DNA from: Haliotis cracherodii
Taxonomy: Eukaryota
Reading direction: 5' to 3'
NCBI RefSeq assembly: GCF_022045235.1
Contig: NW_027266265.1
Coordinates: 29,202,001 to 29,266,000, forward strand
DNA length: 64,000 nt
In this document: positions 2,305-59,481 of the stretch, piece after piece
Position numbering within the stretch: position 1 is the first letter of the stretch
Layout of the letters: each line of letters opens with the position of its first letter
Made by a program: the position numbers and the translations under genes
Notes under the pieces: model-generated
What the model was told of the DNA's origin: nothing
Database searches by the model: none
What the model saw: only the letters and a program-made list of their open reading frames with translations

Positions 2305-2547
2305 TTACTACCACATTGCAATTTTGTCAAACCGATCCGCTAAGAAATACTTCTTTTTTTTCTTTTTCAGACTGATTCCGGCGGTCCTCTGATTTGCGAC
2401 TACAACAACCAATGGACTCTTATTGGAGTTGTGTCTAGTGGTGTTGGTTGTGCTCGGCCCATGTTTCCTGGAAAATATACAAGAGTGTCCAAATATATCG
2501 CTTGGATTGACTATGTAACGTCAGTGAGGAAGCCTTATCACTACTAA
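1..2547 (+). CDS. G1: trypsin-like S1A serine protease, 5'-partial, triad intact
   Basis: Exons <1-63, 591-700, 1052-1192, 1773-1915, 2371-2547, all GT-AG and in frame. Motifs [17 protein letters not shown] (His57), NDIVIL (Asp102), PICLP, AGWG, GGKDSCN/TDSGGP (Asp189, Thr193, Ser195), [18 protein letters not shown]. Stop TAA 2545-2547. Confidence 0.93.
2143..2311. repeat. (CTA)n/(CTG)n microsatellite in last intron of G1
   Basis: Long runs of ctactacta; source of the poly-Ser minus-strand ORF. Confidence 0.95.
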
Positions 2548-8500: not shown

Positions 8501-11016
8501 GGTCGGCTCGGATTCAATATACTGTGTCTCAGTAGGGTATTCATGTTAAACTGCGGCATGGTATCTCAGTGAGTTAGCACTATAAATCGGCATCAGTCCA
8601 GACTAGTACAAGCAGCCACACACACACGTACATTCACGTCGCTATATAAGTGCAATAATCTGGGACGCGACGTAAAACCCCATGTCACCAGTGATAATAA
8701 ACAAATGTTATAGTTTTGTGTTTACTCATCCCCAGCGGTTACCTCAAGAATTAATCCGCAGTGTTTACGCCACATCTGGAAAACTGTCTCGTGAAAATCG
8801 TATCAACGCCAAAAGATGTCGTTCATACTCCTCTGCACGTCAGTTTCGCGGTGGTGTGACCGATCTCTCGTTCTGAGAACGTCTTACTTCATGATAAAAT
8901 ATTATTTAAAACATCCTTCAACGGGTACATACATCAACGAATGTCATGTTTCTGTGTATTTTAGAAGACGAAATGTTGTGGTAAACCCAAGACTGTTGAC
9001 TATAGGAGTTGGGTCTTCCCGTCGGAACAGAGCAAGACGATTTCGTGTCTCTCAAGTCACGGTCCATCCACAGTACCGAAGCAGTAGTTTCTGTAAGTGA
9101 TGAGATTCAACTTCATCAACCGGCCAAATACGGAGCTTAGATAATGCTTCAAAAAGTAGTGTTCCAGCATTATCACGATGGGTTTGAAACCCAAGTCTTT
9201 TGTTTGACGAGCCACGGTGCATCCTCGTAATGAAGCAGTCGTTCCAGTAAATATAAGTGACACAACTCTTTCCATGATCATAAAAAATATATATTGTATA
9301 ATACTGACCAAACATAATCATGTGTCTGTGGTCCACTTGCAAAAAGTGATGGTGTACCTCATGGATGACACTCGTCACAAAAATATGCAAATGCAAGGGA
9401 AGTATTTACGATAAAACAAACGCCATACTAAGGAATTGAATTCTGTAACCCTGATCAAATTTAAACAACTTAACGCATTATACTCATGTGGGGAATAGAC
9501 GAATGAATATATATATATATATTTATATATATGACTGAGGGGGTTTGATTACTGCAGATTTGAACAGTGTATAAACAGCGTGTTTGGTTGACATTGACAG
9601 ACAGAAAACTATTTTCGAGACGAACCCAAGATCAGTGGTACCTGGCTTGGCTAGTGATGCAACAATGCATAGAAATGTACGTCGCCTTGGCCAACTGGTT
9701 GAAATTGGCACCCATATAGTCATTCCTGTGTATTTCAGCTAACGACGTTGCCGTCATCACGTTGAGAAGGAGGTTGCAATGGTCGCAGTGTGTTCGCCCC
9801 GTCTGTCTCCCCGACCAACTCGACACTGCTCTTGTTGGGCAAATATGTGTTGCTGCCGGATGGGGACTCACAAATGGTAATACTATATGTATAAATATGT
9901 CAATACATCAGTTATTGCTTATCTAACGTGTTTACGCTTTAAACAGTACTTCAAAACTAACTATGTATCACAATCAAACCGCGAACCATCCGGTATCCAA
10001 ATGCGAGTCGATCGCGATCCGAACGCGAATCGAACGCGAACCGTACCGATCCGATCGCAGCTACATGTACATGACGTTGTATAAGACACCCAAAATCTTT
10101 CGATCGCCATCGGATAACGATCGATGGAACGTTAGTTTTTAAGTGTCACTTTGTATGAGAATCGCTTTGATCTTCCTAATATCAAAATGTTTGATTTTAT
10201 CTCTATTAATTTCAGAGAAAAACTCACGGGCCGAGAATAATCTCCGGAGCGTCAAAGTGCCAATAGTGAGCAGTGGTACATGCAGAAGGATATATGGATC
10301 CCGAAACTTTGACACAAACAACATCTGTGCTGGTGACGTTAGAGCCGGAGGCATTGACTCTTGTCGGGTACTTAATATCTATTAATGTGAAATAATGAAT
10401 ACATGTATCAAATAGTGTATTTAAAAAAGCAAGTGGGTGAGTTTGATTTAACGTCGCTTTAACAGTATTTCCGTTTCACGGCGTGCCAGCTTGATGCTGG
10501 GGGGAAGCCCAACCCTTTGGTGAGGTCGAACCCATGTGTCAGTTGGTACCGAGAAATCTAGAATCTGGAATTCGAACCAACAATATAATAATTTTTCTGG
10601 CATAGTTCGGCACAGCAAATTGCGGCGCATCAGGCGACTGGGCAGCCTGTGCTACCACTGCAAAAGAAGGAAATGTGTGGGGAAGATGGCACACAATCTT
10701 TTAACTTTGTGATGAGTGTTTTATTCCCAGCTTAAAGGCCCATTATGCTCTATTTGGAGTATGAGGAAACTGTCTTCGTATGCTGAAAACAATGTACGAT
10801 AACGATGCGCGGATAATTGTTACATCCCATTTTACATTTTGATTTTGCTTCATTATCTAGGGAGACTCCGGAGGCCCTTTGATGTGTAGTTCCGGCACCC
10901 AGTGGAAAGTAATGGGCATCGTTTCTTTCGGAAGAGGGTGTGGACGGCGAAGGGCACCGGGGGTCTACGCCTTCGTTCCCCCCTACGTCTCATGGATAAA
11001 TAGCGTCAGGTCATGA
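5570..11016 (+). CDS. G2: secreted, strongly cationic trypsin-like serine protease zymogen with N-terminal six-Cys module and Thr/Pro linker (about 338 aa)
   Basis: Exons 5570-5672 (signal MGWCEGIRVRSLWWRIFVFTLCLLTFMCGSHG/QT), 6815-6916 (CGEHCPYFRQCFPTSQVCQLLYRYCQC), 7201-7254 (RPPPRTTTTT), 7837-8020 (DCG..SSR/IVGG..TAAHC), 8965-9092, 9739-9876 (NDVAV, GWG), 10216-10367 (GIDSCR), 10861-11016 (GDSGGP, VSFG, PGVY). Total 1017 nt, in frame. The three N-terminal exons are less certain than the protease exons. Confidence 0.9.
7423..7597. mobile_element. Degenerate MITE (pogo/Tigger-like termini)
   Basis: Left cactgaaacctcgtttatccggac and right ..cagcgaggtttc form an imperfect inverted repeat; related relics near 24060-24200 and 49915-50092. 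Confidence 0.4.
8350..8690 (+). mobile_element. tRNA-head SINE family B (Meta/MESC-like core); other copies 26182-26410, 34450-34805, 41668-41931, 43046-43326 (minus)
   Basis: A-box tggtctagtgg, B-box ggattcgaacacc, core gtcataccaaaagacgttaaaagatggtac..gctcggcattaa, (CA)n, 3' tail cgtaaaacccc. Core assignment is from memory of MetaSINE/MESC domains. Confidence 0.75.
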
Positions 11017-13385: not shown

Positions 13386-16300
13386 ATGGTTTCACTTAAG
13401 CTGTTAACGTTAGGACTAGTGCTTATTTCTGAGGCGGTCTCCCAATTTTTCATTCCCAGTTTCGGTAGGTTGCAATTGTTTATTTTTCTTATAAACGTGA
13501 TATTTGTGATTATTGTTCCAGCGTCTTGGAAGCCTTTGGCCAAACATTCAAAGTGTCAAAGCAATTATTGTCGTAAGGAGTTGACAAAATTTTGAATCAG
13601 AATGAAATACAATGATTTAATAGATTCAACCATACATTGTGCGTTATTCAAGCTTAATTTGGTGATACGGGAGACGCAAGATATCTTGCGTTGGATCGAG
13701 TCCTGATCAGGTTAGGGAATTGGGTATACTTCAGTTGGGAACATCTCGGGGCGCCAGCATAACTCTTTTGCATTAACACTTTGGGTAAACCTACGGGCAC
13801 GAATTCAGACAAACCAAGAATCATATTCAGACGAATATGAGATTCGAACCTTCGAATATAGGATCCACTTAACATTGGTTACATTATGACCAGGGTAGTG
13901 TAGACCCCCTTTTGCAAAATCCTGGATCCGACTCTGTTTCTGTTCGACTTTTTATCATCCACGTATTAATGCTCACAGGTGCGGTAACCTGCGGATGGCA
14001 GTATGGCGGACAGTGCAAGAGAATCTGTGATAGTGAAGAGTACATCTTAGGCCGGCAGCCATGTGGTTTCGGTGTCGCGGTCTGCTGTTCGCCTACTCTA
14101 CGTAAGGTCTTTTTCTTGTGCAGTTTCATTTTTAAACCATCGGTCCTTGCGAGGGTTTCTGGATGAGAACATATTCCGCTTTTTTGAGTTATATATAAGA
14201 AATGATTGCGGTGATATAAACATTGGATTCACGAGGACAATATTAAAACTCGAGTATTGTATGTCACTAGTCATATCAGTCAATATCTACCAATCTATGA
14301 CTACAGTGAGGACCCATTTGATCTCCCGAGAGTGAATTGTGTCCCAGAAACAAACAGATATGGAAGACAACTTTTAGACGTTTGTAAACATATGGAAATT
14401 CATATTGTAAATGGAAGAATGAAGGGGGACAAACCATATAATTTTACCTACGTTTCTCATCAAGGAGCCAGCGTAATCGATTATTTTATTGTTTCTAGTA
14501 ACATTTTCCATTGTATGTTCCTTCGAAAATTTATTTTGTGACACCACTACATTCATAACTGAAGAAATAAGATTTCAACCTGTCCCTAAAATCAGACAAT
14601 TACATGAGAACAAGGAACGACTTGAACAACTGATGGCTCAAGATAGCTTCAGCAAAATTGTGGATGACTTTACAACTGCTTTGGAAACCGATATTAATCT
14701 AGCTGTTACCAAATTAAAGGACATGGTCCTGTTTTGTGCATCAAGTATGGGAAAGATATCAACAGGTAAATCTAGACCTAGAGAGCAACCTCCATGGTTC
14801 GACACACAGTGTGAAGATCTTAAGGTACAGAAAAGCCGGAAATTAACAAAGTTTAGAAAGTTCTCATGCAGTGAAAATAGGCTGGAATATATTGAGGCAA
14901 AGGACAAGTTCAAGAAATGTTGTAAAGAGAAGAAAATCGCTCATGAGAAGAAAATAGCTTCTGATATTTCTGAAGCCGCTGTAGGTAAAGACTGTAAAAC
15001 ATTTTGGACAGCATTGAAACATGCTCTCGGCAAACATTCTTCGAACTCAAACATTTCTCCAGACAAATGGTTGTCTTATTTCAAAAACTTATTAAATCCG
15101 GAATTAAGTGTAACATGTGAATTTGGGACTATAGTTACACACTTCATTGAAAATCACACTTTTGAAAACTGCGAACACTTCCCATTTATTGACCAGTTGT
15201 TGTCAAGTGTTATCTAATATCTCTCTAAACCAAAAGGAAGATTTTATACTGCCTTCATAGACTTTAAAAAGGCCTTTGACTATGTCGACAGAAAAAAACC
15301 CTACTATATGCCCTACTCCAGAAAGGCTGTCATGGTAAAATGTATGTTATTCTTAAAAGTATGTTTAGCTCTGTGAAAGCATGTGTTAAAGTAGATTCTG
15401 GTAAAACAGATTTGTTCGAAACAACGGTGGGTGTTAGACAGGGCTGTATGTTGAGTCCGATATTATTCATTTTCTTTATAAATGATCTTGTGACAGAAAT
15501 GTACAAAAATTGTCAAAATGGTATATTTATTTCTCAAGATATTGAGGATTTGATGCTGTTGCTTTTGTTGTACTATTTGCTTATAATGTTGTAAGTCTTC
15601 AGAGGCAATTAGATATTTTAGAATTTTTTTGTTTTAAGTGGGGTTTCCAGATAAACTTTAAAAAATCAGAAATTGTAGTTTTTAGAAATGGGGGTATTTT
15701 AAATCGCTTTGAAAAATGGTACTATAACGGTCGTTTATTAAAAACAGTTTCATATTATAAATACCTGGGAGTAGACTGATTTGGACGAAATCATGTGAGA
15801 ACCTGGCAGCTCAGGCTGTTCAGGCATGCATCCCTGTTTATAGATTATTCCAAAAAAATTCATTCCTATCATTCTCCACAGCTTGTAAAATATTTGATTG
15901 TAAAATAAGTCCTATACTTTTATATGGTGCAAAAATCTGGGGGCTAAGGTATTTTGCATGTAAAGAGAAAGTTCAAACTTCATATTTTAAATATTTTCTT
16001 GGTGTAGGTAAATATGCCTCAAACACAGCTATCTTAGGGGAAACTGGCCGCCACTATATGTTTGTCCAGAGTCAGATCAGAGCTATAAAATATTGGCTAA
16101 AATTATTGCACATGGGATCAAATAGATATCCTGTACAATGTTATTACTTCCTTAAAAAGCTAGATGAGAAAGGTAAGCACAGTTGGGTGACAGATCTTAA
16201 AAATTGTTTATATGTTAATGGTTTTTCATATGTCTGGGACTACCAAAATGTTGGTGATGTAAATATTTTTTGGTATCAATTTCAGGAAAGACTAAAAGAT

Positions 16301-19300
16301 GTTGCATTTCAAAATTGGTTTGCAAAATTGTCTGCTTCCAAATATTTATATCCTTATTCAAATGTTAAATCTTTGCTGAATGTAGAAAAATATATTGATT
16401 CTTTGCAGGATAAATCTCTCAGAAGAACCTTCAGTAAATTTAGGATTAGCTTACATAATTTTAATGTTCAGTTACTACGTAAAAAACCCTCAGATAATGA
16501 AAATAGTGTATGTAGATATTGTAACAAGGGTTGTATTGAAAATGAAGACCATGTCTTTTTCACTTGTGATTATTACCAGACTTTACGGAAAAATTATATT
16601 ATCCAACTACGGGATATGTATGACGGTTACCTGTCACTTCCAAATATTCTTAACTGCAATAATGTCGATGTAATAAAACTGACTTCTGTATACCTGTATA
16701 AGATATTTAAATCTAGAAAAACGTGACTAAATTTATATTGTACTGACATTGTAATATAGGCCATGTAGCCCACATTACCGAATAAATCTGTCTGTCTGTC
16801 TGTCAAAGATTCGTTTTATGCCACTATCTGATTCGTAATTAGGTGATTCTGGTAAATTAGACTCCGGGGGACAAAAGAATGTATACCGAAAGTAAGTATA
16901 GTCATTTATGTAATTGAAAATAGAAAGACCTGTTGTTAAATTTGATTATGTCTATTTAATCATCACTTATAACTGCAACAGTTTGTTAAACGTTACCTGT
17001 GGCTGGGTAAGTTTGTGCTTACTGGGAAGACTGGTTTGCAACCAAAAGACCTCTACCACGATTCAAATGTTATAAATTTGTGCTGGAAAAAGAATTTATT
17101 GATTTTCCAAAAGATGCCTAAGATCCCCATCAAAACTTGTGTCTTATTTTTAATTTTTTAATTTTTAAAAGTTTAAATCAAATTATATTTTAAAAAAATA
17201 CAACCATGTAGAAGAATTGTTTGAGTGCTGACCAGGCACCAGTACAGTTATTTTTATGATACAATATCGCTTACTTATTAATCAGATATTTTCAATAGAC
17301 ATATGATAAAATCAACTGAGAGGTATAGTTTCTTTTGTTGCCTTCTATGGCCAGAGTCTCAACATTTTTATACCACCATGCTTTTCACTCTAACTACATG
17401 TATCGTGAGGGAATATATACGGTTTCACGTCGTTAATCTAATACTACCACGTCACAATAGGGCTGAAATATTGCCGATGTGACGTTAAACTTTAACACAC
17501 TCACTCAATACTACCAACACGGGGGACAGCAGGAATGAGCTTCAAACACTGTACCCATGTAGAAATCGAATCCAATTCCCAGAAAACAACTTTGTGAAGT
17601 GTCGTTTTCTTTGTTATATTATATGTATGTGGTTTACAAAAACATGACAAAGATATTTCTTCTTGTAGCGTGCTTATCATATGGCGGAGTGTGTCGCCAA
17701 CGCGGGTGTTTCAGCACCTTTGAGGTGCCCCTTCAGTTCAACGTTAGATGCCCATTCGGAGAAAGAGGAACATGTTGTGTGAGACGGTCGAAAAGACCCG
17801 TAACGCAGACAACAACGATGACAACTACGACGACACTCGTGCCACCTGGTACGTTGTTAGTTACTAATAATCCACAACACGTCCTCTACGAGGGCTAGTC
17901 CAAAGGTTCTGAGCCTAACAAATAACACCAAAACTTGTAAAAGTCAACACAATCTCCCTGCTTTTCAATACACTTCTCATATCGATAGTGAAGCTTTCAA
18001 ATTCCAGTCAGAAGTTTTCTGAAGCCACCCTGAAATACCCATTCACGGCAGTTTTGCGGTCATCGTTGTCGTCATAGCGCTTTCCACGAAGATGTTCTTT
18101 CAGTTTAGGAAACAGGTGGAGCCAGGTCTGGCGAGTATGGAGGGTGAAAAAGCTCTTCTAACTAACAATGTCGCACAGCAGCCTATGCAAGTCGATAGGT
18201 GTGAGAAGAGCCATTGTCATGAAGGGGTAGAACTCCAGCACTCATCATTCCTTGTCGTTTTTCTTTGATAGAATCTCTCAGGCGATGAAGCAAATCAGCA
18301 TAGTAGGCACCGATAACTGTCTTTTGACTTTCTAAGTAATCAACAAGGATAACTTACTTCACTGATCTTGAAGACTTGGATGTCTTTGATGCCGGAGAAG
18401 TGGAATGGTGCCGTTCCGTGGATTGATGTTTTGACTCGGGATCATAGTGGTAGACCCCATGTTCATCACCCGCTACTAATCTCTTTTTAAATTTGATGAA
18501 ATCCTCTTAAATTATCTCTACATTTTCGGTGGCAATGTCAGTTGTTGACAGTTCCTTTTTCTTGAAGATCAAAATTAAGAACATTTGGCACCCAACGAGC
18601 ATATATCTTCATCTGTAAATGTTCATGATATAATAGTTTCAATGGATCCATGGCTTAGACCTGTGTCTCCCTCAAGTTCAGCAATGGCAAAAGGTCTATC
18701 TGACAGTATAAGTTTTTCTATCTCCTTGATTGAATCTTCATTAATGGAAGTTGAGGGAACATTGGAATAGCTAGGGCACTTATCCCCATACACTTGTGAC
18801 ATGCGGTCATGAATTTCTTGGGGAGTACTTTTCTCCAAAGTAAAAAAAACTTGGTACTCGTTCGTTTCCATTTCCGTGTCCATTTGCCCTGTCACGTTCA
18901 ACTGGCTGTCACTAATATACAAACGACCTCAGCAGACCAAATACTCTTGCAATGAACTACTCAAACAATGTACTACATTGACTATTCGCCCATAATTGTG
19001 GGCTTTGGTATGGCCCATAGTTGAAAGTTAGCCAGGCTTAGAACGTTTTGACCAGCCCTCGTTCTCCCTTGTTCATATTTACAAGGTGTCAACAATATCA
19101 ACATAATCAATTCATCGAAACATGAAGCTCTGTTTAAAAGAAAGAAATCGTATGTCATTTTTAATTATTATCAAATTTCCTTAAACCTAAGAAGGATAGG
19201 GTGATGCTGTTTGTTGTTTTACGCCGCACTTAGCAAAATTCCAGTTGTATGACGGCGGTCTGTAGACGTCCGGACCAGACAATCCAGTGATTGACATCAT

Positions 19301-22300
19301 GAGCATCAATCCGCGCAATTGGGATACGATGACATACATCAACCAAGTCAGTGAACCTGACCACCCGATCCCGTTAGTCGGCTCTTGCGACAAGTATAGT
19401 CACCTTTTACGGCAAGCATGGGTTGCTGAAGACCTATTCTAACCAGGATCTTCACGGGTACTTAAAGTAAAAAAAGTGATCATAATTTCCCATCCAACTC
19501 CTATCTATCGTGTCGTATTTCAGTGAAGAAATCAATGCAATAATTAATTATACCGTCGTATGGTGTCAATGTGAATTTGACTTTGCTATCAGCAGCATTT
19601 ATGTTTTGCCGCGATATTCGTATATTTTCTCTCCCATCAGAGCTAAAAAGGGCATACGATTGTTATTATCGAAACTTCACATTCCTGTGTATATTCTAAT
19701 AATTTTCAAGTTACAATAATTATTTCAGATATGCTCAGCAACGTCTTCAGATGAGTTGGAGTACTAAGTAAGGATGAGGTATTAGGATGAACACATAATA
19801 AATTCTTTATTACAACTTGGAGAGACGCTTCGGTGTAGGTTCTCTTGTTTGTTAACGGTGCTAGAACCTACGACGAAAAGGTGATCCTGATTGTAATAAA
19901 GATAGATCTTATCCTTACTTATGCTTAACTACACTAACAAAAATAATTGTAAAACGCTGGTCCTATCTTTTTAGATAAAGCTCTTGATTCTTCAACTGAG
20001 AAACTGTATTCGAAATGTTTTTAACGTAAATATTTGATAGATTCATTAATATTTATTTTCATTTTATTTCACACCGTGTTTCGTTACTGTGACTTATATA
20101 TGTAGATGTCTTTTCAGTGTGTGCTTCACGACCTCGATTTCATCCTGTAGCTGGTCGTATTGTGGGTGGTGTTCCTGTCAGCTCCCAGTGCCAGTGGCCG
20201 TGGATGGTCTCCATTAAACTTGGAACAACCAACCAGATTGGCCCTCATATCTGTGCCGGAGTGCTCGTCAACCGCAACAAGGTTCTCACCACATCAAGCT
20301 GTGTGCTCGGGTAAATTGTGACTGTAGACTCTATGCAGGGTTTAAAGTCAATCTCATTATAATCAGATCTTAGTTCTCGCTACCGCTAAACAAAGATCTG
20401 AGGACATCCCATTCCGGGTCACGTCAGACCGACCTTGCGCGAACTTTGACCGACCAATGAAATGACTGACAGGAAGTCTACATTAGCCAATCAGAAGGCA
20501 GCTTTCTTGTGCTTTACGGCACTCATTTCAAATTGGCGACAACGCTTTGAAACATATTTTGACAAATTCTCGATAAAATATTTGAAACCTGAACAAAATA
20601 ACATTTTGAAATGGCTAATAGATGGTCTAGATTGTATGGATTCAGTCGTTAAGCCCGTAACTATCGTTCGGAATACCCGTGTTAAAGTTTTCGAGGTTGT
20701 CACTTTCATGATCTGGTAAGCGACGTTCTGATTCGTCGAATGAAAGGTTGTTCTGACGTTACCCCTAATGGGATGTCCTCAGATCTTTGTTTAGCGGTAG
20801 CGAGAACTAAGATCTGATTTTAATGAGATTGGGTTTAAAGTGTAGTTTGAATGAAACAGTTGACAGTTTTAAACAATTTTACTAGATGAATACCAATAAT
20901 TCACAAAGCAGTTTGTGTTTTGCAATATTGGTGGTAACAACATATAATCAAATGAGTCAGTTAGTTGTTGCATTTTTCGACTGCATTACCCACTCTGGTT
21001 TTCCTTTCCATCAACCATGAAAACGATTACCTTCCCGTCGTCACTGACAGTGTCTTCTGTATAACGCTGGTTGTGTCAACAAAATTAACACGAACTGAAG
21101 ACAAACAAACATTTTTATTTACGTTTTAAGTTCATTGTATTATAAAAGAAAACTTCTCAAACACGTTTATGTTTGTAAAAGTCTTGTTTGTTTATTTGGG
21201 AGAATATTACTGACCGACGGAGTTCGACCACGTAAACGACGTAAGACATATATGTTATTACGGTAGTCATAGCTCTACGATCACGTTGTTGTACTTAAAG
21301 CAGATGTGATTCGTTATTCGTAATTCAACTTTGACATTACGATATCGAGTGAGATATCTGCTTCTGTTCCAGCCGCCAGGTGGTTGTAACTGTTGGCGAG
21401 AATAACATCAACAACCTTTGGGAAAATGGCGAGCAGACCGTGGCTGTAACTGGTGTAGCCACACCAAATCCAAGCCCGGCCGACCTTGGACAGCCATTGA
21501 GGGGTAGGTACTTTACCCGATATCCAACACAGTTACTGACACCATTCGTTTATGTACCAACCCCGTCCGATTTCTGTGAAGGGAGAATTGGTTCCATGTA
21601 ACCTCGTGGTAAGAGGCGACTAAGATGGATAGGCTGGGTTGTCAGGCAAGGTGATTGCGGGCCATCTTACGACCTGACGCTCTTCATAATGTCAACCACT
21701 TGTTTTCTTTTTCTGATTCGACTATTTACAGGCCGTTCATAAATAGTTGGATTATAATTGTACGTCAAAGATATATCATGGTAAACTGCATTCTACGAAA
21801 TTCAATACTGATTTAATGGCGTAAGATTGTAATCAAATGAGCGTATCGTGAATTTAAAGTATTCATATATGTGCATGGAATGTAGTCATCTGATGTCCAT
21901 TATTTAAGATGTCATCAACAATTTGCAGCTGACGACATAGCCATTCTGACTCTGGAATCATCCATTCCGTCTGATGGAACTTCATGTGCACAACCTGTCT
22001 GTCTTCCCCGGAATGGGGAGACCGTCGACTCAAACAGCAGATGTTACATAGCAGGCTGGGGGCCAAATGCACGTGAGTAGATCAATAGATTTATGAGTGA
22101 GTGAGTTGGGCTTAACGCCGCTTTTGACAGTATTCCAGTTATATCACGGCGTGTCAGCTTAACGTGGGAGGAAAGACCGAAGTGATGCAGGTCTCAGACG
22201 TTTACCACTTTGGTGAAACCCACGAGCACGGATATGGTGCTGACAAACCTAGAAACATAATCGAACCTACAATCATAGGTTTCTGGCGTGCCCAAGGGAC

Positions 22301-24486
22301 ACACTTTTGTACAGCAAATCACGGCGCCTAAGACCACAGGGCCACCCGTGCCCCCAATAGAGTTATGATCCATATGGTTAGAGATAAGAGATCAAAATAA
22401 ACAAACACGGGAAGCCATATGATTACACGGGCCTTATAGCATTTATTTGTAACACAGATATCATTGTTGACGCAATACAGACATCCCTGTTTATGTAATG
22501 CAGATATCACTTTTGGTGTAAAACGTATTCACGTAATAAAGACATCATTGTTGATGTAATACAGACTCTGTTCATGTAATACAGACAGCAAATTTAAGAA
22601 ATACAGACAACGTTGACGAAATACAGATATCACCGTTGACGTAATACAGACATCATTGTTGACGTAACGCAGACAACAATGTTGATGTAAGATAGACATC
22701 ATTGTTGGCGTAATAAAGACATCATTGTTGACGTAATATAGACAACAATATTGATGTAATATGAACATCATTTCTTGACGAAATACAGATATCACTGTTG
22801 ACGTAATACAGACATCATTGTTGACGTAATGCAGACAACAATGTTGATGTAAGATAGACATCATTGTTGACGTAATAAAGACATCATTGTTGACGTAATA
22901 CAGACATCATTGTTGACGTAATATAATGGTAATGTAATATAGACATCATTGTTGACGTAATAAAGACATCATTGTTGACGTAATGCAGACAACAATGTTG
23001 ATGTAATATAGACATCATTTCTTGACGAAATACAGATATCATTGTTGACGTAATACAAACAGCAAAGTTGTAGTGAAGATATCATTGCTGAAGTATACAC
23101 ACAGCACTGATGACGGAATACCATTAGGCATGCCAGAATCTAATGATCGTAGGTTAGAATCCCAGATTCGTCCTGATTATAATTATTTGTTTGTCTGCAC
23201 CATGCCCTGACCTGCATCACTTTAGGCTTTCATCCGATGTTTACCTGACTGAAATGCAAGTCAAAGCGGCATTGAACCCATTTAAGCCCATGCACAAACT
23301 ACGTGGATGCTTTATACTGCTGAGGGAGGGTGGGGTAACTTCGTGGTTAAAGCGTCACGATTCCCAACGTGGGGGTACAATGTGTGACGCCCATTTCTAG
23401 TGTTACCCGCCGTTATATATAAAATAAGCGGCTTTAAAACCATACTAACTCACTCACTAATAATCTGCTGAACCAGCATATGTATGTTGTTGTGCACATT
23501 ATGATGCATGTTGTTGTGCACATTATGAAACATGTTGTTGTGCACATTATGATGCATGTTGTTGTGCACATTATGATGCATGTTGTTGTGCACATTATGA
23601 TGCACATTGTTGTGCACGTTATGTACATCTCTATCTGATAAATGAATGTTTTCCAGTCGGGGACGGTCTTCTACACGAGGCTAATGTGAGGATTATGCAA
23701 AATGCCTTATGTTCATTCATAATTGGATCAAGAACCAACCTGCCAACGGACAAAATCTGTTCTCACCCTGTCATAGATCGGACCAACGCTTGTCAGGTAA
23801 ACACAAATATTATTCTTTTAAGTACCTGAACACCATCTATTATAACTTAATACAAAGTACTTTATCACTCACAGGCAATATATACTCGAAAAAAATCGGT
23901 GTCATGAATATTTTTGGGGATTTGTGTTGTAAAGTCTGGGAACACAATATCACAAAAATATCCCCCGAAATAGCCATGATCGCTAACCTTTTCGTTCCAT
24001 ACAGATATATAGTACTAAGCTAATTAGATAAGTGTATCAATTTTCTACATGAATATAAAAAACCGACATTAATCCGGACAGTATTGTTCTCTGTTAAATC
24101 GTCCGTATTGACGACTTTCCATATTAACGAATCTTAGTAATATCAATTTGATCCGTTTTTACTTATCCGCTATTAACACTGAAGGAGGATTGTATACAGT
24201 ACATCTCAAAAAGGCATCTCGCAGCTCAATCTGGAGACTTACACACTTACAGATTCTAATAAAAATGAATGTTTCTGTTTCGCTATGTGCAGACAGTACA
24301 TAACACCGTGTAGATGATGATTTTAACGATTTTCAGAGAGACAACGGTGGGATGCTGGTATGTGAAGATGGTACAGGAACGTGGAGCCTATTTGGCCTCA
24401 TCAGTGATAACAACTGCAATGCAAACATCCCTGTTATCTACACGCAGGTCAGCAGGCACCTCGGCTGGATCACCTCAAACCTTTGA
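13386..24486 (+). CDS. G3: secreted serine protease homolog (pseudoprotease) with two beta-defensin-like domains (about 379 aa)
   Basis: Exons 13386 (or 13371)-13464 signal, 13979-14101 (CGWQYGGQCKRICDSEEYILGRQPCGFGVAVCC), 17669-17848 (CLSYGGVCRQRGCFSTFEVPLQFNVRCPFGERGTCC + Thr run), 20118-20310 (AGR/IVGG..TTSSC, His57>Ser), 21373-21503, 21929-22072 (DDIAI), 23657-23796, 24337-24486 (RDNGG, Ser195>Asn). 1140 nt in frame, no stops. Confidence 0.92.
14260..16804 (+). mobile_element. 5'-truncated, frameshifted non-LTR retrotransposon (APE endonuclease + RT; CR1/L2/RTEX-like) in G3 intron 2
   Basis: Endonuclease end (IVNGRMKGD..FTY..GASVIDYFIVS), PPWFD, DFKKAFDYVDR (about 15260), GVRQGCMLSPILFIFFINDL, decayed FADD, YKYLG, C-terminal KFRISLH..CRYC..ENEDHVFFTC, AATAAA 16781 and a (TCTG)n tail. 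5' edge approximate. Confidence 0.9.
17889..19061 (-). mobile_element. Decayed mariner (Tc1/mariner) DNA transposon in G3 intron 3
   Basis: 28-bp TIRs cgagggctagtccaaaggttctgagcct / aggcttagaacgttttgaccagccctcg (4 mismatches), TA on the left. Minus-strand remnants ARWVPNVL, GDEHGVYHYDPESK, HDN, HPPYSPDLA, with stops and frameshifts. Confidence 0.92.
20349..20831 (+). mobile_element. 483-bp non-autonomous TIR element with 10-bp TSD and RecQ-like remnant (AcademH-like)
   Basis: About 65-bp TIR (caatctcatt..gatcttagttctcgctaccgctaaacaaagatctgaggacatcccatt, 1 mismatch), TSD ggtttaaagt at 20339-20348 and 20832-20841, internal peptide FSIKYLKPEQNNILKWLIDGLDCM. Confidence 0.85.
22095..22353 (-). 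mobile_element. SINE family C copy
   Basis: Reverse complement of the 55033-55317 consensus, with (TGAG)n tail. Confidence 0.8.
22450..23100. repeat. About 23-bp minisatellite (gacatcattgttgacgtaataca)n with higher-order variant pattern
   Basis: More than 20 tandem units; variant units (caacaatgttgatg, catttcttgacgaaat) recur. Confidence 0.92.
23484..23628. repeat. 24-bp minisatellite (atgttgttgtgcacattatgatgc)n
   Basis: About 6 tandem units just upstream of a G3 exon. Confidence 0.92.
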
Positions 24487-26035
24487 ATCGACCATTGCTG
24501 ACTAAGTTAGAAGCCTAGATATAATAACATCCCCACCTCATTAATATGATTTCATTTTACATGAACGTTCTTTTCATATTAATGAGATAATTTAATATGA
24601 ATTATACAATGTCCATATAAATAAATAAGATAGTTAGAATTTTCCCGTAGTTCAACAGACAAGCAAGCGAGTCTGCGTTTGTGAAACATTATACAAGGGA
24701 GAGTAGTGAACGACTAGATATAACAAGCTGTAATGTCGACACAATATAATCATGTCTTGGTGTATGTGCATTATGATTGCGAGTCGCGTAGCGCATATTT
24801 GAAACGCTGAACTGGTCAAGAGACAATTCAAGGAACACCCAGTAAAACATTGATATCTCGAAATCCTGGGGACTACATCTCCGTCTTCGAGTTAAGCAGA
24901 GACACCTTAAAAGTGTCGCCAATGCTTCAACGGTGACCATGAGGTAACTTTGTACCGAGCATAATATCGAATTCAAGGAGTTCAAGGTATGCTTTATATA
25001 CTCTGTACTGAGAACTGTACTCTTTGGAATGGATATCATACAGAGAATGTCTAATGAACATAAAGGTATTTCTAAATGTACTCTGCTGTATTACATAACT
25101 ATGTTGTACATTTTACGTATGTATGACAAGTAAACTTGATGAAAAACAATTTTGTGTGTTGACTTTAGTTGTATAAATATATCAAGTAGTTGCATGTGAA
25201 TTGTCAAAAAAATGTTCAAACTGTTTTATGGTAGACATGTTGAGGGCATTTTCCAAATCTGACGAACCAGTGACAAAAAATATGTCCGATGCAGTTACTT
25301 ATTTTCACTTGTACCATATGTTCCCGTGAATATTTGACTTGCATTTTTAGTAAATCAGTAAATGCGTATTATGTCACTGGATTGTCTGGTCCATCACTTG
25401 CTTGTCTGGCCAAGACACGATTATTTACAGGCAACCGTCGTATGGTAAGAGTACTGCTGTGCGGCGACAGGGAACACTTACTTTTGTATGCACATTGTAT
25501 TACTGGCGGTTGATACCTGTATGCATGGTCGTGCTTACCCTTTTCGCGAACATCTGCATTTCAATGTTGTTTTGCATTTTGCGCCTGATGAAATTTGTTT
25601 CGGTAGAGAGTCGAGACTGAGTGTTCTCTGGCGTTGACGTTGTATTGACGTTGTATTGACCTTTTATATTAATGGTGGGGTAAACCTGTGGAGCAGGATA
25701 CGATCACCTTTTCGAAAACAAATACCGGTGATTCATATGACATGCTTTTGAGACCAGTAAAGATCCGAGGTAGAATAGGTCTTTAGCAACCCATGATTGC
25801 CGTGAAAGGTGACTGTGCTTGTCGTAAGAGACGACTAACGAGGTCGGGTGGTTAGGCTCGCTGACTCGGTTGATGCTTGTCATCGTTTCCCAATTGAGTG
25901 GATCGATGCTCGTGATGTCAATCACTGGATTGTCTGGTCCAGACTCGATTATGTTCAGACCGTCGTCATATAGCTGGAATATCGCTGAGTGCGGCGTTAA
26001 ACAACGAACAAACGAACGTGCTTTTTATATGGTTG

Positions 26036-26181
26036 NNNNNNNNNNNNNNNNNNNNNNNNNNNNNNNNNNNNNNNNNNNNNNNNNNNNNNNNNNNNNNNNN
26101 NNNNNNNNNNNNNNNNNNNNNNNNNNNNNNNNNNNNNNNNNNNNNNNNNNNNNNNNNNNNNNNNNNNNNNNNNNNNNNNNN
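26036..26181. other. Assembly gap (146 N)
   Basis: Run of n between two SINE copies. Confidence 1.
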
Positions 26182-40300: not shown

Positions 40301-43300
40301 TTCCTTTAATCATTAATTAAAGCGGCAAAACCCTTTACTTTAAATGAAAGTGACTAAACCCTTTCCTTTAATCCTAAATAACAGCGACTAAACCCTTTTC
40401 TTTAATCATAAATAAAAGCAACTAAACCCTTTTCTTTAGTCATAAATAAAAGCGACTAAACTCTTTCCTTTATCACTGACAAAATCGCCAAAACCCATAG
40501 AGTCTATTGTACGATTCCGACTATATCCTAAGCATGTGTTTATATATAAAGACCTTTCTGCTAAAATCGCTCCACTGTGCAATGAAAAACTACCGGTAGA
40601 AGTACATACATTTTCAAACTATCATGCAACCAAAAAGCATAGATTTTGATGGGATTTTCATATTCCATTCAAAACAGACTATTACCATAAACAGCTAAAT
40701 TAACTTTTGTCATGTATTTCCAACCAGGAACTTGTGGCAAACGAAGATACATCGGTTCCTTTCCTCTCAACAGCACACGTGGGGCATGTGTGTTCCCCTG
40801 GGTTGTGTCAATCAGGACCACATACAGCCATCACTACTGCTCGGGCGTGCTGGTATCTGACCACGCCGTGTTAACAGTCACTGGATGCGTGGATGGGTAA
40901 ATATGAACAACAATGTGCATTTCAACAATGGTCCTGATCTTATTACATTTTACGATTACAGATAACCTTTCTCGTCGTGGGGTAATATCTCAGTCACAAA
41001 GTGATCTTCTACAGAATTATTACTACATCATCAGAACCGGGCCCTGGTTGTTATTAGATTCTTCTCATTGTATTACATACAAGAATACCCAGACCATAGA
41101 TTCCTGTTTATATTGCTTCCTACCTATCATATAACCCTAACTCTATTCTCAGATACCGAGAACAATTGTTCCTTGTGTTTCTTAAATATTTCTGATTATC
41201 TTACTATAAACGACTACAATGACATAAGGTTTAATAACACTTTCCTCAACATATAACCATTAATACATTCTCAGAGAGAACATATATTTGGTTATAAGTT
41301 TTAAACGTTATTATGTAAATTGATTAATACATGTAATTATTGTAATTTGAAGAAGTGGAATAACTGTTTGTTAGGTTCCTTACTCTGTCAAAGTGTATTC
41401 TTTAAGGGTTTCAACATCTCAACTAGTTCTAACATTGGGAGAATATGACGCAACACAAGCGGAAGCCACAGAAGTACAGGTGGAGGTTGCATCCATCACT
41501 AGGCACCCGCACCACACAGCCTTCACCAGAGGTAACTCAAGATAGGTGAACAAAAGCAGCTTGACTTTTCAGACGCTAGAATTAGAGAACGATGCAGGAT
41601 GTGATGAATACAAAATATATAAATCATTATTGGGAAACGTATGTTACCAAGATGCTTGTAAATGGTGAGGGTGAGGTGAAATTGGGTTTAAAGTCCCGTC
41701 CAAGATTATTGCACCCATAAAGCGACGTGCAGGTACGTGTCTGTGTGTGGCTGCTTGTACTAGTCCGGACTGATGCCGATTTATAGGGCTTGTTCAACAT
41801 GAATACCCCACTCAGACACAGTCTAATGACTCCAAGCAGACCAGTCCTTGCTTAACCCCCTTAATGCCGAACGCGAGACAGGGTAACAACAAGTACCGTC
41901 TTTTAACATCTTTTGGTGTGACGCGGCCGGTCCTTGTAAATAGAAATATATTTTATGACATATTTTAGCTTTAAGTCTGCAACCATGAAGATTTGGTTAA
42001 AAAATGGTGCCCAGCAATCTATGCTTTTCGTAAGGGCTGACGAAATGGATCAGGAAGACTCGGTGACTTGGTTGAGAGCATGTGCATCGCACGTGTGTCA
42101 TTGCTTATGATATCAATTACTTGATTGTCCTTATAATATGTTTATGTTACCAACAATTACCAAATGCTTCACAACAAAATAATCACATAATTACACGTGC
42201 TTGCAAATGGACATGTCTCCAGCTTTAAGTTTAAGTGTGTTGTCCCGACAGGCTTTGATCTCGTGCTGTTGGAGTTTGCCGAAGTTGTGAACCACCCCTG
42301 CATTTCCCCAGTGTGTCTACCTAAGGTCAACACATCTCCGGTCAGTCTCGGGTTTGGACGTTGTCTGGTGGCCGGGTGGGGAGATATCACAGGTGTGTCC
42401 ATAGTGGCCAGTCAGGTAGCCCTTTTTGGATGTCAGGTTTCCACAGGGTCGGTCGGGGAGACCTGTGTTTGATTCCCCAAGTGAATAAAATAATGGAAAA
42501 TACTTTCTGTTTGTTAATCATAGTCGATTATACTTAGTTCCCTTCTTCACGTAGATAATATCGATTCAGTCAACATGTAAGAAAGGTCTTGGATGTAAAT
42601 GTGGACGTATGTTATAGTAACGGATAGCATTTTATGTTGATTACATTTCTAAATTAGATCCAGATGTGTCGAGTGTGCTCGAAGTTCGGCCAGTGAGAGT
42701 GTACGAATCCTCCATGTGTTCTCAACTGCTGTTGGCCATGAATGCCAACGGCACGGTGCCTGATGACGTAATTTGCTCTCTACAAGACGACGAAGAGGAC
42801 ACTGATTGCAAAGTAAGTCTGAGGATGAAAGAAGAACCTTTCATTAAAACGCAGTACGAATTTTTAAAATAAGCGAGTACCTACATTGTAGAGACTGGTA
42901 ATTGGTTTTCCTGGTCGGATTATTCAAGTTATCCAAATCGAGTCTGTTTTTATGTCTACCAATGGCTTGAAAATAACCCACAATAAAGATGCAAGCAAGT
43001 CCCACAATAAAGATGCAAGCAAGTCAAGTCAAGTATGTTATTCGTTGGTGAGATGAAATGGGGTTTACCGCCGCATTCAAGATTAATGCACTTAAGTAGC
43101 GACCTGCATGCACGTGTATGTGTGTGTGTGCCTTCTTGTACTAGTCCGGACTAATGTCGATTTTGTAGTGCTAGCCCACTGAGACACAGTATACTGACTC
43201 CTAGCAGACCAGTCCATGTTTTAGCCCCTAAATACTTAGCGCCAGACAGGATAACAACAAGTACCATCTTTTAACGTCTTTTGGTGTGACGCTGCCGGGG

Positions 43301-43916
43301 ATCGAACCCCGACCATCTGCTCTCCATAATCAATAGAAAGACCGGAAGACTACGACCTTACATGTATCATAAACATTTGTTCATATATTACTGTCCTCCT
43401 GATATCTGGTGTTCCCGAAACGGTAAGCGTATCCTTTCTCACCAGTGGCGCATGCCACAAACACATACAAAGGCAAGGCAATTGCTCACCTGATACACAC
43501 ACGGGGAAATATGGTACTAGTCAAAATGGGGATTTGCATGTGGCATCATTTCGTCACTGATGCGTCAAATTTGGAAATGTCCTCCACATGTCTACCATAA
43601 AACGTTTCGAAAGCTTTACGAAAGCATTGAATGTTATAACCTTGAACAAACAGAAGTCGTACAGAAAACGTCGGAAACTTTGTAACAACGTTAACAATAC
43701 TTAAGATTACCAAATGAACGTTTGGTGTCATGTCAGGTTTACCTGCACGATTCTTTGTTTCAGACTGATGGCGGGAGTATGTTGATATGCCCCGATGAAA
43801 ACACCCAGTACTTCCTGTTTGGCATCGTTACAGAATACACGTGTACTGACTATGCGGTGACGCTTTATACCGATATAAGTAGTCATATCGAATGGATCGA
43901 AAGCAACTTATCATGA
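37393..43916 (+). CDS. G5: secreted, acidic serine protease homolog with two beta-defensin-like domains, long Thr/Ser linker and no IVGG activation motif (about 403 aa)
   Basis: Exons 37393-37468 signal (MLSWILCVCWLLYLQAVCA/QYFFWS), 37904-38023 (CHLRYGGECRGLCHPVEVNLGLDYCNNGMGYQGTCC), 39584-39856 (CWYIGGICRKWCMPDYETKYSLPTTCPHFRSTCC + mucin-like linker), 40728-40896 (TVTGC, His57>Gly), 41407-41531, 42252-42392, 42658-42812, 43764-43916 (TDGGS, Ser195>Gly). 1212 nt in frame. Confidence 0.9.
40048..40495. repeat. 33-34-bp minisatellite (aaataaaagcgacaaaccctttcctttaatcat)n
   Basis: About 13 tandem units, followed by the dispersed-repeat core agagtctattgtacgattccgactat. Confidence 0.92.
43400..43700 (-). 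mobile_element. Penelope-like retroelement 3' relic
   Basis: Minus-strand peptide VQGYNIQCFRKAFETFYGRHVEDISKFDASV resembles PLE RT C-termini. It is followed by a motif also seen at 4805-4850, 6368-6425, 25503-25550, 33588-33640 and 51753-51805. Confidence 0.5.
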
Positions 43917-54065: not shown

Positions 54066-57000
54066 ATGTTGCCCAGGACTGTGTTTCAAGTTTTACTCTT
54101 GGCCTATATAGCCTCTATTACTAATGGACAGTTTAACTGTAAGTATTGTTTTATGTCATCCATACGAATATATATGAATAATTAGCAGTGAAGGACATAA
54201 AGTCGGTAGTATCGCTATCAGTTTGGTTTGAATTATATTCTTTCACTGCAATGAAGTGCAGTGCGTTAGCACTGTTTGTTGTAAATCCAGACCGCAGGTG
54301 TTAAATTGGGTTTGAATTCATTATTTCCAGTTAAACCTGAAGTCAGCTAGCCAGTATTTACACACAATCATGAAGTAGGGCAATGGGAGTACACAAGTCA
54401 TTAGCAGCTTGCCCCGATTACCATAATATATTCTGAGCTTACTGTTGACGTGACATTTACTTTCACGGCAAAGCAGATTTCCAGGTGTATTTTGACTCCT
54501 GCCTGTGTAATTGATATATTTGCATATTGCAATTAAACGACTAACACAAACGTTGGAAACGTTTCACTGAAGTATGCAATTAATTATGTAAATATGAATA
54601 CATTGAATTATATTATTTTAACTACAGAAGGGACTCGTTGATTAGGATCATGATGAATGATATATGTCTTCGTCATTAAGCGGTCCGTCGACCTCTGACA
54701 ATCCTCTCCAGTGCAAGGTATAGCTTTGAGACAGGAATGGAAATATACATTCAAACATATCAGTTACATTAATCTATTACACTATCGTTCCATTATGCTT
54801 GTGGAGTCTTAAATGCATGTGGGGGATTGTGGTTTATGTGCTGTTTTGACAGCTGAGAAGTTCACCCGAACTTACATGTATTTCTGGGTATGTGATGTTG
54901 ACTTATCCAGCTAGTTTGTATAAAGCTTAAGCTGACAAATACGAGGTTTAATAGCGATGTGGAAAGACGTCCACGCCTATTTCTTTGTATCATGCCACGT
55001 TGGGACGCCATCATACTTTCATAATTTGCCGCGGGCACGGGTTGCCCGGTAGTCTAAGGCGCCGCGATTCGCTGTGCAGAGTTGCGTCCCTTGGGAACAC
55101 CACAAACCTATGATTGTGGGTTCGAATCCCGGTTCGCCCCGATTATGATTCTATGTTTGTCAGCACCATACCCGTGCTCGTGGGTTTCACTGAAGTGGTA
55201 AACATCTGAGACCTGCATCACTTCGGGCTTTCCTCCCACATTAAGCTGACACGCCGTGATATAACTGGAATACTCTTAAAAGCGGCGTTAAACCCAACTC
55301 ACTCACTCACTCACTCATAATTTGCCGACTAATTGCTATAACTTCTTCATGGCATATACACGACAGTTCAGGGCCACGTCTTACCCATCTCAACAGGTGA
55401 ATGAATGGCAGGATAGTTAAATAACACACGCACGCATGCACGCACGCACGCACGCACGCACGCACACGCGCACGCATGAATATATGTTGGACATGACAGT
55501 TTCTGCCAGCTGATTGGTATATACAAAAGGTTGGTGACACATGTAGAGTAAATTATGGTAAAAATGGTATCTTTTGTTTCAGTTTGTCGCTTGCTACAAG
55601 GTCAATGTCAGACCATATGTCCATCGGGTTCTACCACTCTGTTCCAAGCCCCAATTCTGTGTCCCTCAAGGAACTACTGCTGTATTCAAGATAGATCACA
55701 ACGAACGACAACGACAACAACGACAACGCGAATCCCTGCCACTCGAACCCCCTATCCGGTAATCACAGGTAGCCCCATTCTTCCGTGTTTGTGGAATCAG
55801 GTCAACGTGCTCATAGTTTAAACATAATCGGAAATAGAAATGTCATATAGAAATGATCAAACGCATACATTTACTTCACGATTAGATCACCCAAATCTGA
55901 TTTCACCTACAAATTTGACTGAATAGTCCCGATAGTTAATAAATTTCGTCCAAAACTTTACCCTGAATATCTTCAGCAACCTATTGCTTGCCGTAAGAAG
56001 CGACTAACGGGATCGGATTGTCAGCCTAGCTGACTTGGTTGATGCATCCCAATTGCTTTGATCGATACTCATGATTGTATGGCCCAGTTTGAATATGACT
56101 GAGTGTTGCGTTAAACAACAAACAAACAAACCTTGACGATCTGGTTCTTGTAGATCTTGAAGAATTATAACACACAACACTTGATTAGCACGGGTTTTAG
56201 TTGTGAGGTACATGCACATGTGGTTAACTGATAGGTATCCAATGTGATGTCACACTAAACTAACACTTACTACTACTAAGTGCATTGTATAATGTATTCC
56301 TATTTGGACAGAATGCGGGATAGGACTACAGTCCCGTATAGACGTTTCTTCACGGATTATCGGCGGTTCCAATGCTGGCCGTTGTGAATTTCCATGGATG
56401 GTGTACATATATAGAGAAAACAGTCCATGCGGAGGCAGCATCATCGACAGCAGACATATAGTGACAGCTGGTCACTGCCTGAGGTGAGATGCTGTTTGTT
56501 GAGATAAGATGCTTAAAGGGGGACTTTTCTCCTCGACCCGGTTCCTGTTTCAAGACTAAGCCTAGTCATTGTAATTAATACCTTGTTCTCCAAATAATTC
56601 TAGGAACCGGAAAATCGCAACAAGACAAATATTTGTATTGTTCATTAGTAATCACTACTTAACCATCCCCGCTCATCGTGTGTATTATATAGCCAGTGTA
56701 TTGTGTTAAGTACTCCTCGCCCCATATTACAAGCGGTAATGGTACAAGGAATGGAATATTATGTTCAGAAAATACTTATGTTTTATTGTCTTGAATAAAT
56801 CTTGCTAAGAACGAATGCACACTGACAAATACAAAATTCCCCGTTATACTCGTGATGTGCATTATATCTCCATTTATTTGGGAGAATATTTCCATTTACT
56901 TTAATCAAACCTAGATGATTAAAATAGGCTGATTCAAGTTAGCTCTATGAAATCAACTGTTGAAAAAAAGTTTTATGTAAAAAAAGAATGTGTATGTTTA

Positions 57001-59414: not shown

Positions 59415-59481
<67 letters not shown>

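Follow-up and report, generated by a model that had tools for sequence, protein, structure and literature searches.

Inactive S1 proteins with disulfide-knotted heads are already known. In haptoglobin and hepatocyte growth factor a dead S1 domain is disulfide-linked to its head and the maturation cut is kept; the heads are CCP or kringle domains, and both are vertebrate plasma proteins. In arthropods, the clip-domain serine protease homologs (clip-SPHs) of group clip-A, among them PPAF-II and Manduca SPH1/SPH2 (Pfam PF12032 and PF18322), have conserved tether cysteines, an activation cut and a dead S1 domain, and the same head is found on both active and dead genes. In gastropods, the map of upstream proteases and cofactors in humoral defence is still poor. 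Clip proteases have been reported in molluscs, and the homologs need cleavage to act as cofactors (PMC8611957). Here we describe G3, G4 and G5, three of six tandem trypsin-family genes (G1-G6, all on the + strand) in a 64,000-nucleotide stretch of the 1.18 Gb Haliotis cracherodii genome (G000:C2:29202001-29266000), which we call the window and whose positions are counted from its first letter. Their motifs and fold matches identify them as S1A serine protease homologs with a chymotrypsin-type fold and replaced triad residues, predicted to be inactive. New relative to the known systems are the gastropod spread and the beta-defensin-type head. We tentatively favour a reading by analogy with the arthropod clip-domain homologs, in which G3-G5 belong to an old gastropod family with twin beta-defensin-like modules whose members would be secreted, cut once and then assist an extracellular protease cascade as cofactors or adaptors without catalysis of their own.

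Each gene has eight exons, arranged as a signal exon, module 1, module 2 with a linker, and five protease exons. G3 (13386..24486, + strand; exons 13386-13464, 13979-14101, 17669-17848, 20118-20310, 21373-21503, 21929-22072, 23657-23796 and 24337-24486) has an open frame of 379 amino acids identical to P0001 (XP_071091980.1). G4 (28563..35180, + strand; exons 28563-28641, 29213-29335, 30649-30840, 31998-32178, 32483-32619, 33283-33414, 34097-34242 and 35031-35180) also encodes 379 amino acids and is identical to P0002 (XP_071091981.1). G5 (37393..43916, + strand; exons 37393-37468, 37904-38023, 39584-39856, 40728-40896, 41407-41531, 42252-42392, 42658-42812 and 43764-43916) encodes 403 amino acids identical to P0003 (XP_071091979.1). 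The exon models were built by hand and then compared with the database proteins, which they match exactly. All introns are GT..AG with phases 1,1,1,2,1,1,0 and there are no internal stops, so the first-pass annotation's description of three genes intact over eight exons each stands. Its span for the finding, 20118..43916, places the motifs correctly but cuts G3 short, leaving the first three exons of that gene, with both modules, outside. Signal peptides are predicted for all three proteins, as judged by eye. The proteins are already in public catalogues under generic enzyme names, the NCBI names being Haliotis cracherodii elastase-like or CTRL-1-like.

The catalytic motifs are replaced on the + strand in the way that the first-pass annotation had read them (chymotrypsin numbering). 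TAAHC becomes TTSSC at 20288 in G3 (His57 codon 20297..20299, Ser), TTASC at 32156 in G4 (32165..32167, Ser) and TVTGC at 40874 in G5 (40883..40885, Gly). Upstream in the same exons are the activation sites RIVGG in G3 and RILGG in G4, and an atypical activation segment, KRRYIGS, in G5. GDSGG becomes RDNGG at 24337 in G3, where positions 193-195 (24337..24345) are Arg-Asp-Asn, with Gly193 and Ser195 lost and Asp194 kept; GDNGG at 35031 in G4, where they are Gly-Asp-Asn (35031..35039); and TDGGS at 43764 in G5, where they are Thr-Asp-Gly (43764..43772), with Gly193 lost and Asp194 kept. Asp102 is retained in all three, within DDIAIL (G3), NDIAIL (G4) and FDLVLL (G5). The 214-220 loop is shortened to ISDNNC at 24400 (G3), ISDNAC at 35094 (G4) and VTEYTC at 43827 (G5), leaving four residues before Cys220 compared with five in all seven Ser exons that have DSGG. 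The Pfam Trypsin model exceeds its cut-off for the His exons of G3, G4 and G5, and a G4 model (mean predicted local distance difference test score, pLDDT, of 64) matched tryptase, chymotrypsin and elastase at E ~1e-18 to 1e-16. The three protease domains are acidic, with net charges of -5, -8 and -22 and isoelectric points (pI) of 5.25, 4.81 and 4.32 for G3, G4 and G5, respectively.

Ahead of the protease domain, each protein has two six-cysteine modules. G3 module 1 (13979..14101, +) is a phase 1-1 exon with net charge 0, and G3 module 2 shares its phase 1-1 exon (17669..17848, +; net +4) with a dibasic site and a Thr-rich linker. G4 module 1 (29213..29335, +) has a seventh cysteine (window 29233-29238), kept in all three abalone species, that may pair with another chain; G4 module 2 and its linker follow at 30649..30840 (+; net +4). 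In G5, module 1 (37904..38023, +; net -1) is followed by module 2 with a 55-residue Ser/Thr-rich stalk (39584..39856, +; net +2). Ser and Thr account for 10 of the 21 linker residues in G3 and 29 of the 55 in G5. In all six modules Cys5 and Cys6 stand side by side as a final CC, and the five that match the search pattern have cysteine spacings of 6-7, 3-4, 11-13, 6-9 and 0, with G-x-C. Under the working rule that six cysteines before a protease domain, with Cys5 and Cys6 adjacent, make a clip domain (PMC1761132), these modules would be called clip domains.

The profile, fold and spacing comparisons point elsewhere; each is weak, but they agree on the beta-defensin type, in keeping with the defensin domains named in the first-pass annotation, and we regard the modules as predicted beta-defensin-like domains. 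Matches to Pfam beta-defensin families were below threshold (best PF13841, 16.6 bits against a cut-off of 22.2). A profile built from 10 modules, run against PDB sequences with E allowed up to 10, matched only three chains, all oyster big defensins (E 0.065-0.56). G4 module 2, the one module modelled alone, is predicted to form a short helix and three strands, the beta-defensin fold (pLDDT 80 for the best of five models, 54-60 for the others). With this model, 32 of 33 weak Foldseek rows were defensin or defensin-like (human beta-defensin-1 at a template modelling score of 0.57-0.64, with E no better than 1.1), and human beta-defensins headed the VIA rows (Z 3.8, root-mean-square deviation 1.9 over 34 residues). 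A phase-1 intron precedes the module in 6/6 cases in G3-G5, and a fitting acceptor was found for 16/16 modules of the surrounding 444 kb. Phase 1-1 exons are common among shuffled modules, so the argument from intron phase is weak. The cysteine-rich region of big and beta-defensins is also preceded by a phase-1 intron (PMC7203481). Like the modules of the oyster big defensins Cg-BigDef1 and Cg-BigDef5 and of the avian double beta-defensin AvBD11, those of G3-G5 thus have six cysteines, G-x-C and a preceding phase-1 intron, besides the weak profile and fold matches. Unlike big defensins, G3-G5 have no hydrophobic N-terminal domain, the modules coming directly after the signal exon, and unlike both big defensins and AvBD11 they fuse two modules, with charges of 0 to +4 or slightly negative, before a protease fold. 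The same module type is found on active proteases, once in G6 and once before each of the two domains of Pomacea P0083.

Profile searches found proteins of the same build in Patella caerulea (P0085), Nucella lapillus (P0128) and a JGI record (P0118), and further ones in Patella vulgata, Lottia gigantea and Aplysia californica (P0179-P0181; Aplysia is P0181). The P. vulgata model has one module, the Aplysia model is partial and starts inside the head, and the first module is altered in Nucella and P0118. With the abalone orthologs described below, the family set comprises 15 sequences, nine from abalones and six from other sources. Ser195 is lost in all 15, while Asp194, Met198, the four residues before Cys220 and an Arg site ahead of the protease domain are present throughout. 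His57 and Ser195 are both replaced in 9/9 abalone sequences (G3-G5 and their orthologs), and position 195 is Asp in all six non-abalone members. In the alignment of family and active protease domains, the Gly216 column is a gap in 11/11 family rows and Gly in 10/10 active rows, position 198 is Met in 11/11 family rows and Pro in 10/10 active rows, and Gly226 is lost in 11/11 family rows. Asp189 is retained in G4, the three limpets, Nucella and P0118. Since Gly216 and Gly226 are lost, the S1 pocket should be closed, and binding would therefore be likely to use other surfaces.

The main tree was built from 25 whole protease domains, omitting H. rufescens G3-G5 and P. vulgata as near-copies and including four active proteases as the arthropod rows. 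The 11 family rows and two abalone dead proteins headed by a VWA domain form one clade (support 100/99), separate from active G2 and G6 and from the Pomacea and arthropod proteases. A grouping of the two-module proteins that excludes the VWA genes was neither obtained nor rejected (p-AU 0.133). This tree supersedes an earlier one of 48 rows in which the region genes were three-exon fragments, 6 of 29 region matches were omitted for missing exons, the backbone was open and the PPAF-II homolog had no placement. The searches yielded no member from bivalves, cephalopods or annelids, but they were crowded by generic trypsins and length-limited and hence are not evidence of absence. Paper searches by accession returned only irrelevant matches, and a literature search gave no account of a gastropod-wide pseudoprotease headed by two beta-defensin-type modules, most subscription journals being outside its coverage; mollusc clip-protease papers reportedly appeared in such journals.

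The order of the losses can be read from the distribution of residues across the family. His57 is kept in Nucella, Aplysia and P0118, is Arg or Gln in limpets and is Ser or Gly in abalones; the limpet members also have Asn at position 102. Because Nucella and Aplysia retain His57, it was likely lost later than Ser195. We infer an order in which Ser195 went first, together with the loop and the pocket, and His57 followed, once or twice, with the Asp102 loss of limpets likewise probably a later step. P0128, P0181 and P0118 combine His57 and Asp102 with an Asp at 195 and an aromatic side chain at 193, a set that might speculatively form a metal or ligand site.

G3-G5 appear to be maintained genes, as the first-pass annotation had supposed from their intact frames. 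A 1618-nucleotide contig from run X2 carries G4 exons 1, 3, 4, 7 and 8 (contig positions 1-241, 366-557, 558-736, 1005-1150 and 1151-1317) and is spliced, since the gaps match the lengths of exon 2 and of exons 5+6. Spliced G5 contigs are present in runs X1, X6 and X14, and in X2 as two pieces. These runs are assembled contigs, presumed to be RNA, and record presence only, so nothing follows from the lack of G4 cover in X14. Full-length orthologs with the same losses are found in H. rufescens (P0007, P0009 and P0011) and H. asinina (P0012, P0004 and P0005). Identity to H. asinina is 198/251 (G3), 201/247 (G4) and 214/246 (G5) in the protease part, or 79-87%, and 14/21, 13/26 and 26/55, or 47-67%, in the linkers. 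Between the paralogous protease domains, synonymous divergence is saturated or nearly so (pS 0.68-0.80) against a non-synonymous divergence (dN) of 0.41-0.81. Among 40 of the 156 rows listed, 29 coding differences were classed: 13 were synonymous, 9 of them in the protease parts, and 16 were non-synonymous, 6 of them in those parts; a 3:1 site correction gives ~0.4 overall and ~0.2 for the protease parts, values that are pooled over three organisms and given little weight. An extra disulfide pair has both cysteines in 9/15 family sequences and neither in 6/15. Because the pair is never half present, this pattern points to selection on the folded protein.

From these features a maturation pathway may be proposed. 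A trypsin-like enzyme would cut after the Arg of RIVGG, RILGG or RYIGS, the new N-terminus would pair with the retained Asp194, and the head would remain tethered through a Cys1-Cys122 bond to give a two-chain protein. A single cut yielding two chains is suggested by the retention of the Arg site, Asp194 and the tether cysteines, given established S1 zymogen biology. With the S1 pocket presumably closed by the loss of Gly216 and Gly226, the modules and a set of family-specific surface residues (Glu at G4 position 213, Pro-x-Asp at 313-315 and Met198) could bind a partner or a surface. The architecture matches that of the clip-SPHs (PMC1761132, PMC8611957), with a signal, six-Cys modules with adjacent Cys5-Cys6, a Thr-rich linker, Cys1, an Arg site and a dead S1 domain. 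The language-model neighbours of a limpet member were arthropod S1 clusters with clip families, among them a phenoloxidase-activating-factor-2 cluster (score 0.96; a single-source lead), while an Atlas feature search with the G4 head reached clip clusters at 0.76-0.77 only.

Several observations weigh against this cofactor reading. The modules resemble beta-defensins rather than clip domains, having 3-4 residues between Cys2 and Cys3 and matching beta-defensin structures; neither clip family, PF12032 or PF18322, was matched at E up to 5, and no clip structure occurs among 33 Foldseek and 29 VIA rows, nearly all of them defensin-type. A clip family outside these two profiles is conceivable, but the positive evidence favours the beta-defensin type. 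The arthropod clip proteases in the tree, all of them active ones, fall outside the family clade, and on these two counts we take the clip-SPH parallel as an analogy. The family clade itself unites long branches and may be partly an artefact, with its inner order unsettled. In the family, position 195 is Asp, Asn, Lys or Gly, abalone His57 is lost and the 214-220 loop is short, in contrast to the H-D-G of most clip-A rows; in clip-A homologs (PMC11172050) His57 is retained and the trypsin-like pocket is open, unlike in G3-G5. A cut in G5 would place Tyr at position 16. Finally, the VWA, TSP1-like and EGF-like exons and Thr-rich stalks on or near neighbouring dead genes would also suit roles in matrix or mucus.

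The double loss of His57 and Ser195 does not itself set G3-G5 apart. The first-pass annotation had held that arthropod SPHs usually lose only Ser195, but in Tenebrio His57 is kept in 42 of 125 homologs and Ser195 in 24 of 125, so that at least 59 of 125 are without both; loss of Ser195 alone fits the clip-A rows of the same tables, which read H-D-G or H-D-Y (PMC11172050). Double loss is thus ordinary. In a broader proposal, which is possible but doubtful, gastropods would have a counterpart of the arthropod clip-protease system that arose when a big-defensin-type exon was shuffled onto trypsin genes. The twin-module pseudoprotease would be its conserved cofactor, dead since before the split of limpets, abalones, whelks and sea hares and triplicated in abalones, where cleavage of G3 and G4 could release a cationic double defensin.

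The alternative that fares best gives G3-G5 a structural or adhesive role, binding mucus, matrix, shell or the coats of eggs or sperm: the dead domain and the modules, spaced by a glycosylated stalk, would cross-link or coat a surface and take no part in a cascade. The Ser/Thr-rich linkers of G3 and G5, the acidic protease domains, the VWA-headed dead genes within the same clade and the TSP1-like and EGF-like exons adjoining other dead genes are all compatible with such a role, and the seventh cysteine of G4 could cross-link. On the other side, the activation Arg and Asp194 are kept in 15/15 family sequences, and the main text of a limpet pedal-mucus paper names no trypsin-like or defensin protein (PMC7333891). 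We consider this alternative unlikely.

Direct antimicrobial action, the function that the first-pass annotation had in mind, would make G3-G5 either azurocidin-like or carriers that release the twin defensin head at the dibasic site. The activity of azurocidin rests on its cationic surface, and its His57 is replaced by Ser, as in G3 and G4. Azurocidin is a proteolytically inactive, antibacterial S1 homolog that stands beside active paralogs, as G3-G5 do, but is confined to placental mammals (PMC4646688, PMC7914634). The parallel is weak: azurocidin is a single-domain homolog of the neutrophil elastase clade and has no N-terminal modules, whereas G3-G5 are multi-domain proteins with acidic protease domains (pI 4.3-5.3), and the double loss is absent from their relatives in Nucella, Aplysia and P0118. 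Azurocidin was not among the rows of either tree; the substitutions that it has in common with G3 and G4 are convergent. The carrier version draws on the predicted beta-defensin fold of the modules, on the oyster big-defensin chains as their only PDB profile matches, on the phase-1 intron before the module, as in big and beta-defensins (PMC7203481), and on the cationic heads of G3 and G4 (+4 to +6), with RR or RK directly after module 2 in 6/6 abalone sequences. However, the heads are near neutral in G5 (+1 to +2) and in the limpets, Nucella and the partial Aplysia model (-1 to +2), with no dibasic site after module 2; P0118, with a strongly cationic head (+8), is the sole such case outside abalones. 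The isolated beta-defensin domain of an oyster big defensin was not bactericidal to S. aureus at 20 uM in 0-300 mM NaCl and needs the hydrophobic N-terminal domain, which G3-G5 do not have (PMC6805989). The same fold also serves other ends, as in the amylase inhibitor helianthamide, which is among the structure-search rows. Direct antimicrobial function is improbable on this evidence, and direct killing is less likely than a clip-like cofactor role.

A role as decoys or inhibitors, soaking up dietary or microbial protease inhibitors or blocking proteases, would have parallels in insect gut homologs, where it is proposed, and in the SMIPP-S proteins of the scabies mite, where action against complement has been shown. 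SMIPP-S proteins are not known to have defensin modules, and canonical inhibitors enter the S1 pocket in chymotrypsin-family structures. The local expansion of dead genes among active ones is large, recalling the SMIPP-S, at least 32 in number, whose multigene family likewise consists of S1 homologs in which the triad is mutated (PMC2907415). In Tenebrio the majority of homologs are anionic, and expression of 95 homolog transcripts falls mainly in the feeding stages (PMC11172050). Retention of Asp189 in G4, three limpets, Nucella and P0118 would also suit a decoy, but loss of Gly216 and Gly226 should close the very pocket that canonical inhibitors use. SMIPP-S, gut proteins with which the parasite inhibits host complement, are described as highly diverse, whereas G3-G5 have stayed conserved among abalones; slow evolution there, and one record per species found outside abalones, are unlike fast-changing decoys. 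We judge this role, too, to be quite improbable. That G3-G5 are pseudogenes or still-active enzymes is highly improbable: the Nucella, Aplysia and P0118 relatives do retain His57 and Asp102, with Asp at 195, but in G3-G5 the nucleophile at 195 and the base at 57 are both gone, with Gly193 also missing from G3 and G5, and the spliced contigs (G4, G5), intact orthologs in three species and sequence constraint speak against decay, pseudogene status being refuted for G4 and G5.

Two neighbours in the window are candidate partners of G3-G5 by neighbourhood only. G6 (54066..63856, +; 346 amino acids) has intact triad motifs (TAGHC, DDIAM, GDSGG) and one module of the same kind, and G2 (5570..11016, +; 338 amino acids) likewise keeps its triad motifs intact, behind a six-cysteine head of different spacing. 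The triad motifs are also intact in G1, although the Ser motif there reads TDSGG (window 2371-2385), with Thr replacing Gly193 at the exon start. The head of active G2 (window 6815-6916) ends in C-x-C and has no Pfam match; a head of this different type also occurs on G1, about 510 bases upstream of the window start (L006). In G3 intron 2, at window ~14200-16720, a decayed stretch resembles a long interspersed nuclear element (LINE) with reverse transcriptase, as read by eye.

In the 444 kb around the window there are 29 His-exon matches, two of them mutually exact duplicates, and 23 Ser-exon matches. Because only 8 of the 29 His exons have [AG]HC and 7 of the 23 Ser exons have DSGG, most genes of the cluster are without catalytic motifs; seven genes with intact motifs are interspersed among the dead ones. 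The six-cysteine pattern was matched 15 times, compared with 0-2 times in 20 shuffles, and G4 module 1, missed for its extra cysteine, makes a sixteenth. Single modules lie upstream of several dead downstream genes and of active G6, and VWA exons lie upstream of two dead genes, modules outside the window being assigned to genes by proximity only. Two modules were found in the scan only at G3-G5. The equation of dead genes with two defensin domains, drawn in the first-pass annotation, therefore holds within the window but fails in the wider cluster, where dead genes have single modules or VWA exons: in every case seen two modules go with a dead gene, and dead genes do not need two modules. The shared clade of the VWA-headed proteins and G3-G5 suggests that heads have been swapped.

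Other features of the cluster were noted on both sides of the window. At ~29,286,000-29,327,000 (L009-L013) there are three dead protease genes with TTASC and Glu at 195, two of them behind VWA exons, and one His exon is exactly duplicated 2,868 bases apart. Four dead genes lie at ~29,337,000-29,383,000 (L014-L018), three with a single module and nearby TSP1-like exons. Upstream, at ~29,065,000-29,136,000 (L031-L038), are four dead protease genes with EGF-like exons or variant modules, one module being present in two near-identical copies on opposite strands. A gene at ~29,193,000-29,196,000 (L006) has TAAHC and Ser195 but GNSGA, with Asn replacing Asp194.

With a pseudoprotease conserved between limpets and sea hares there is a defined starting point for finding partners in farmed abalone or Aplysia, and the use of a beta-defensin-type module as a protease head bears on the relation between defensin and clip modules. 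The family may also be read as a stepwise record of the death of an enzyme, in which Ser195, the pocket and the loop would have been lost first, and His57, and in limpets Asp102, later.

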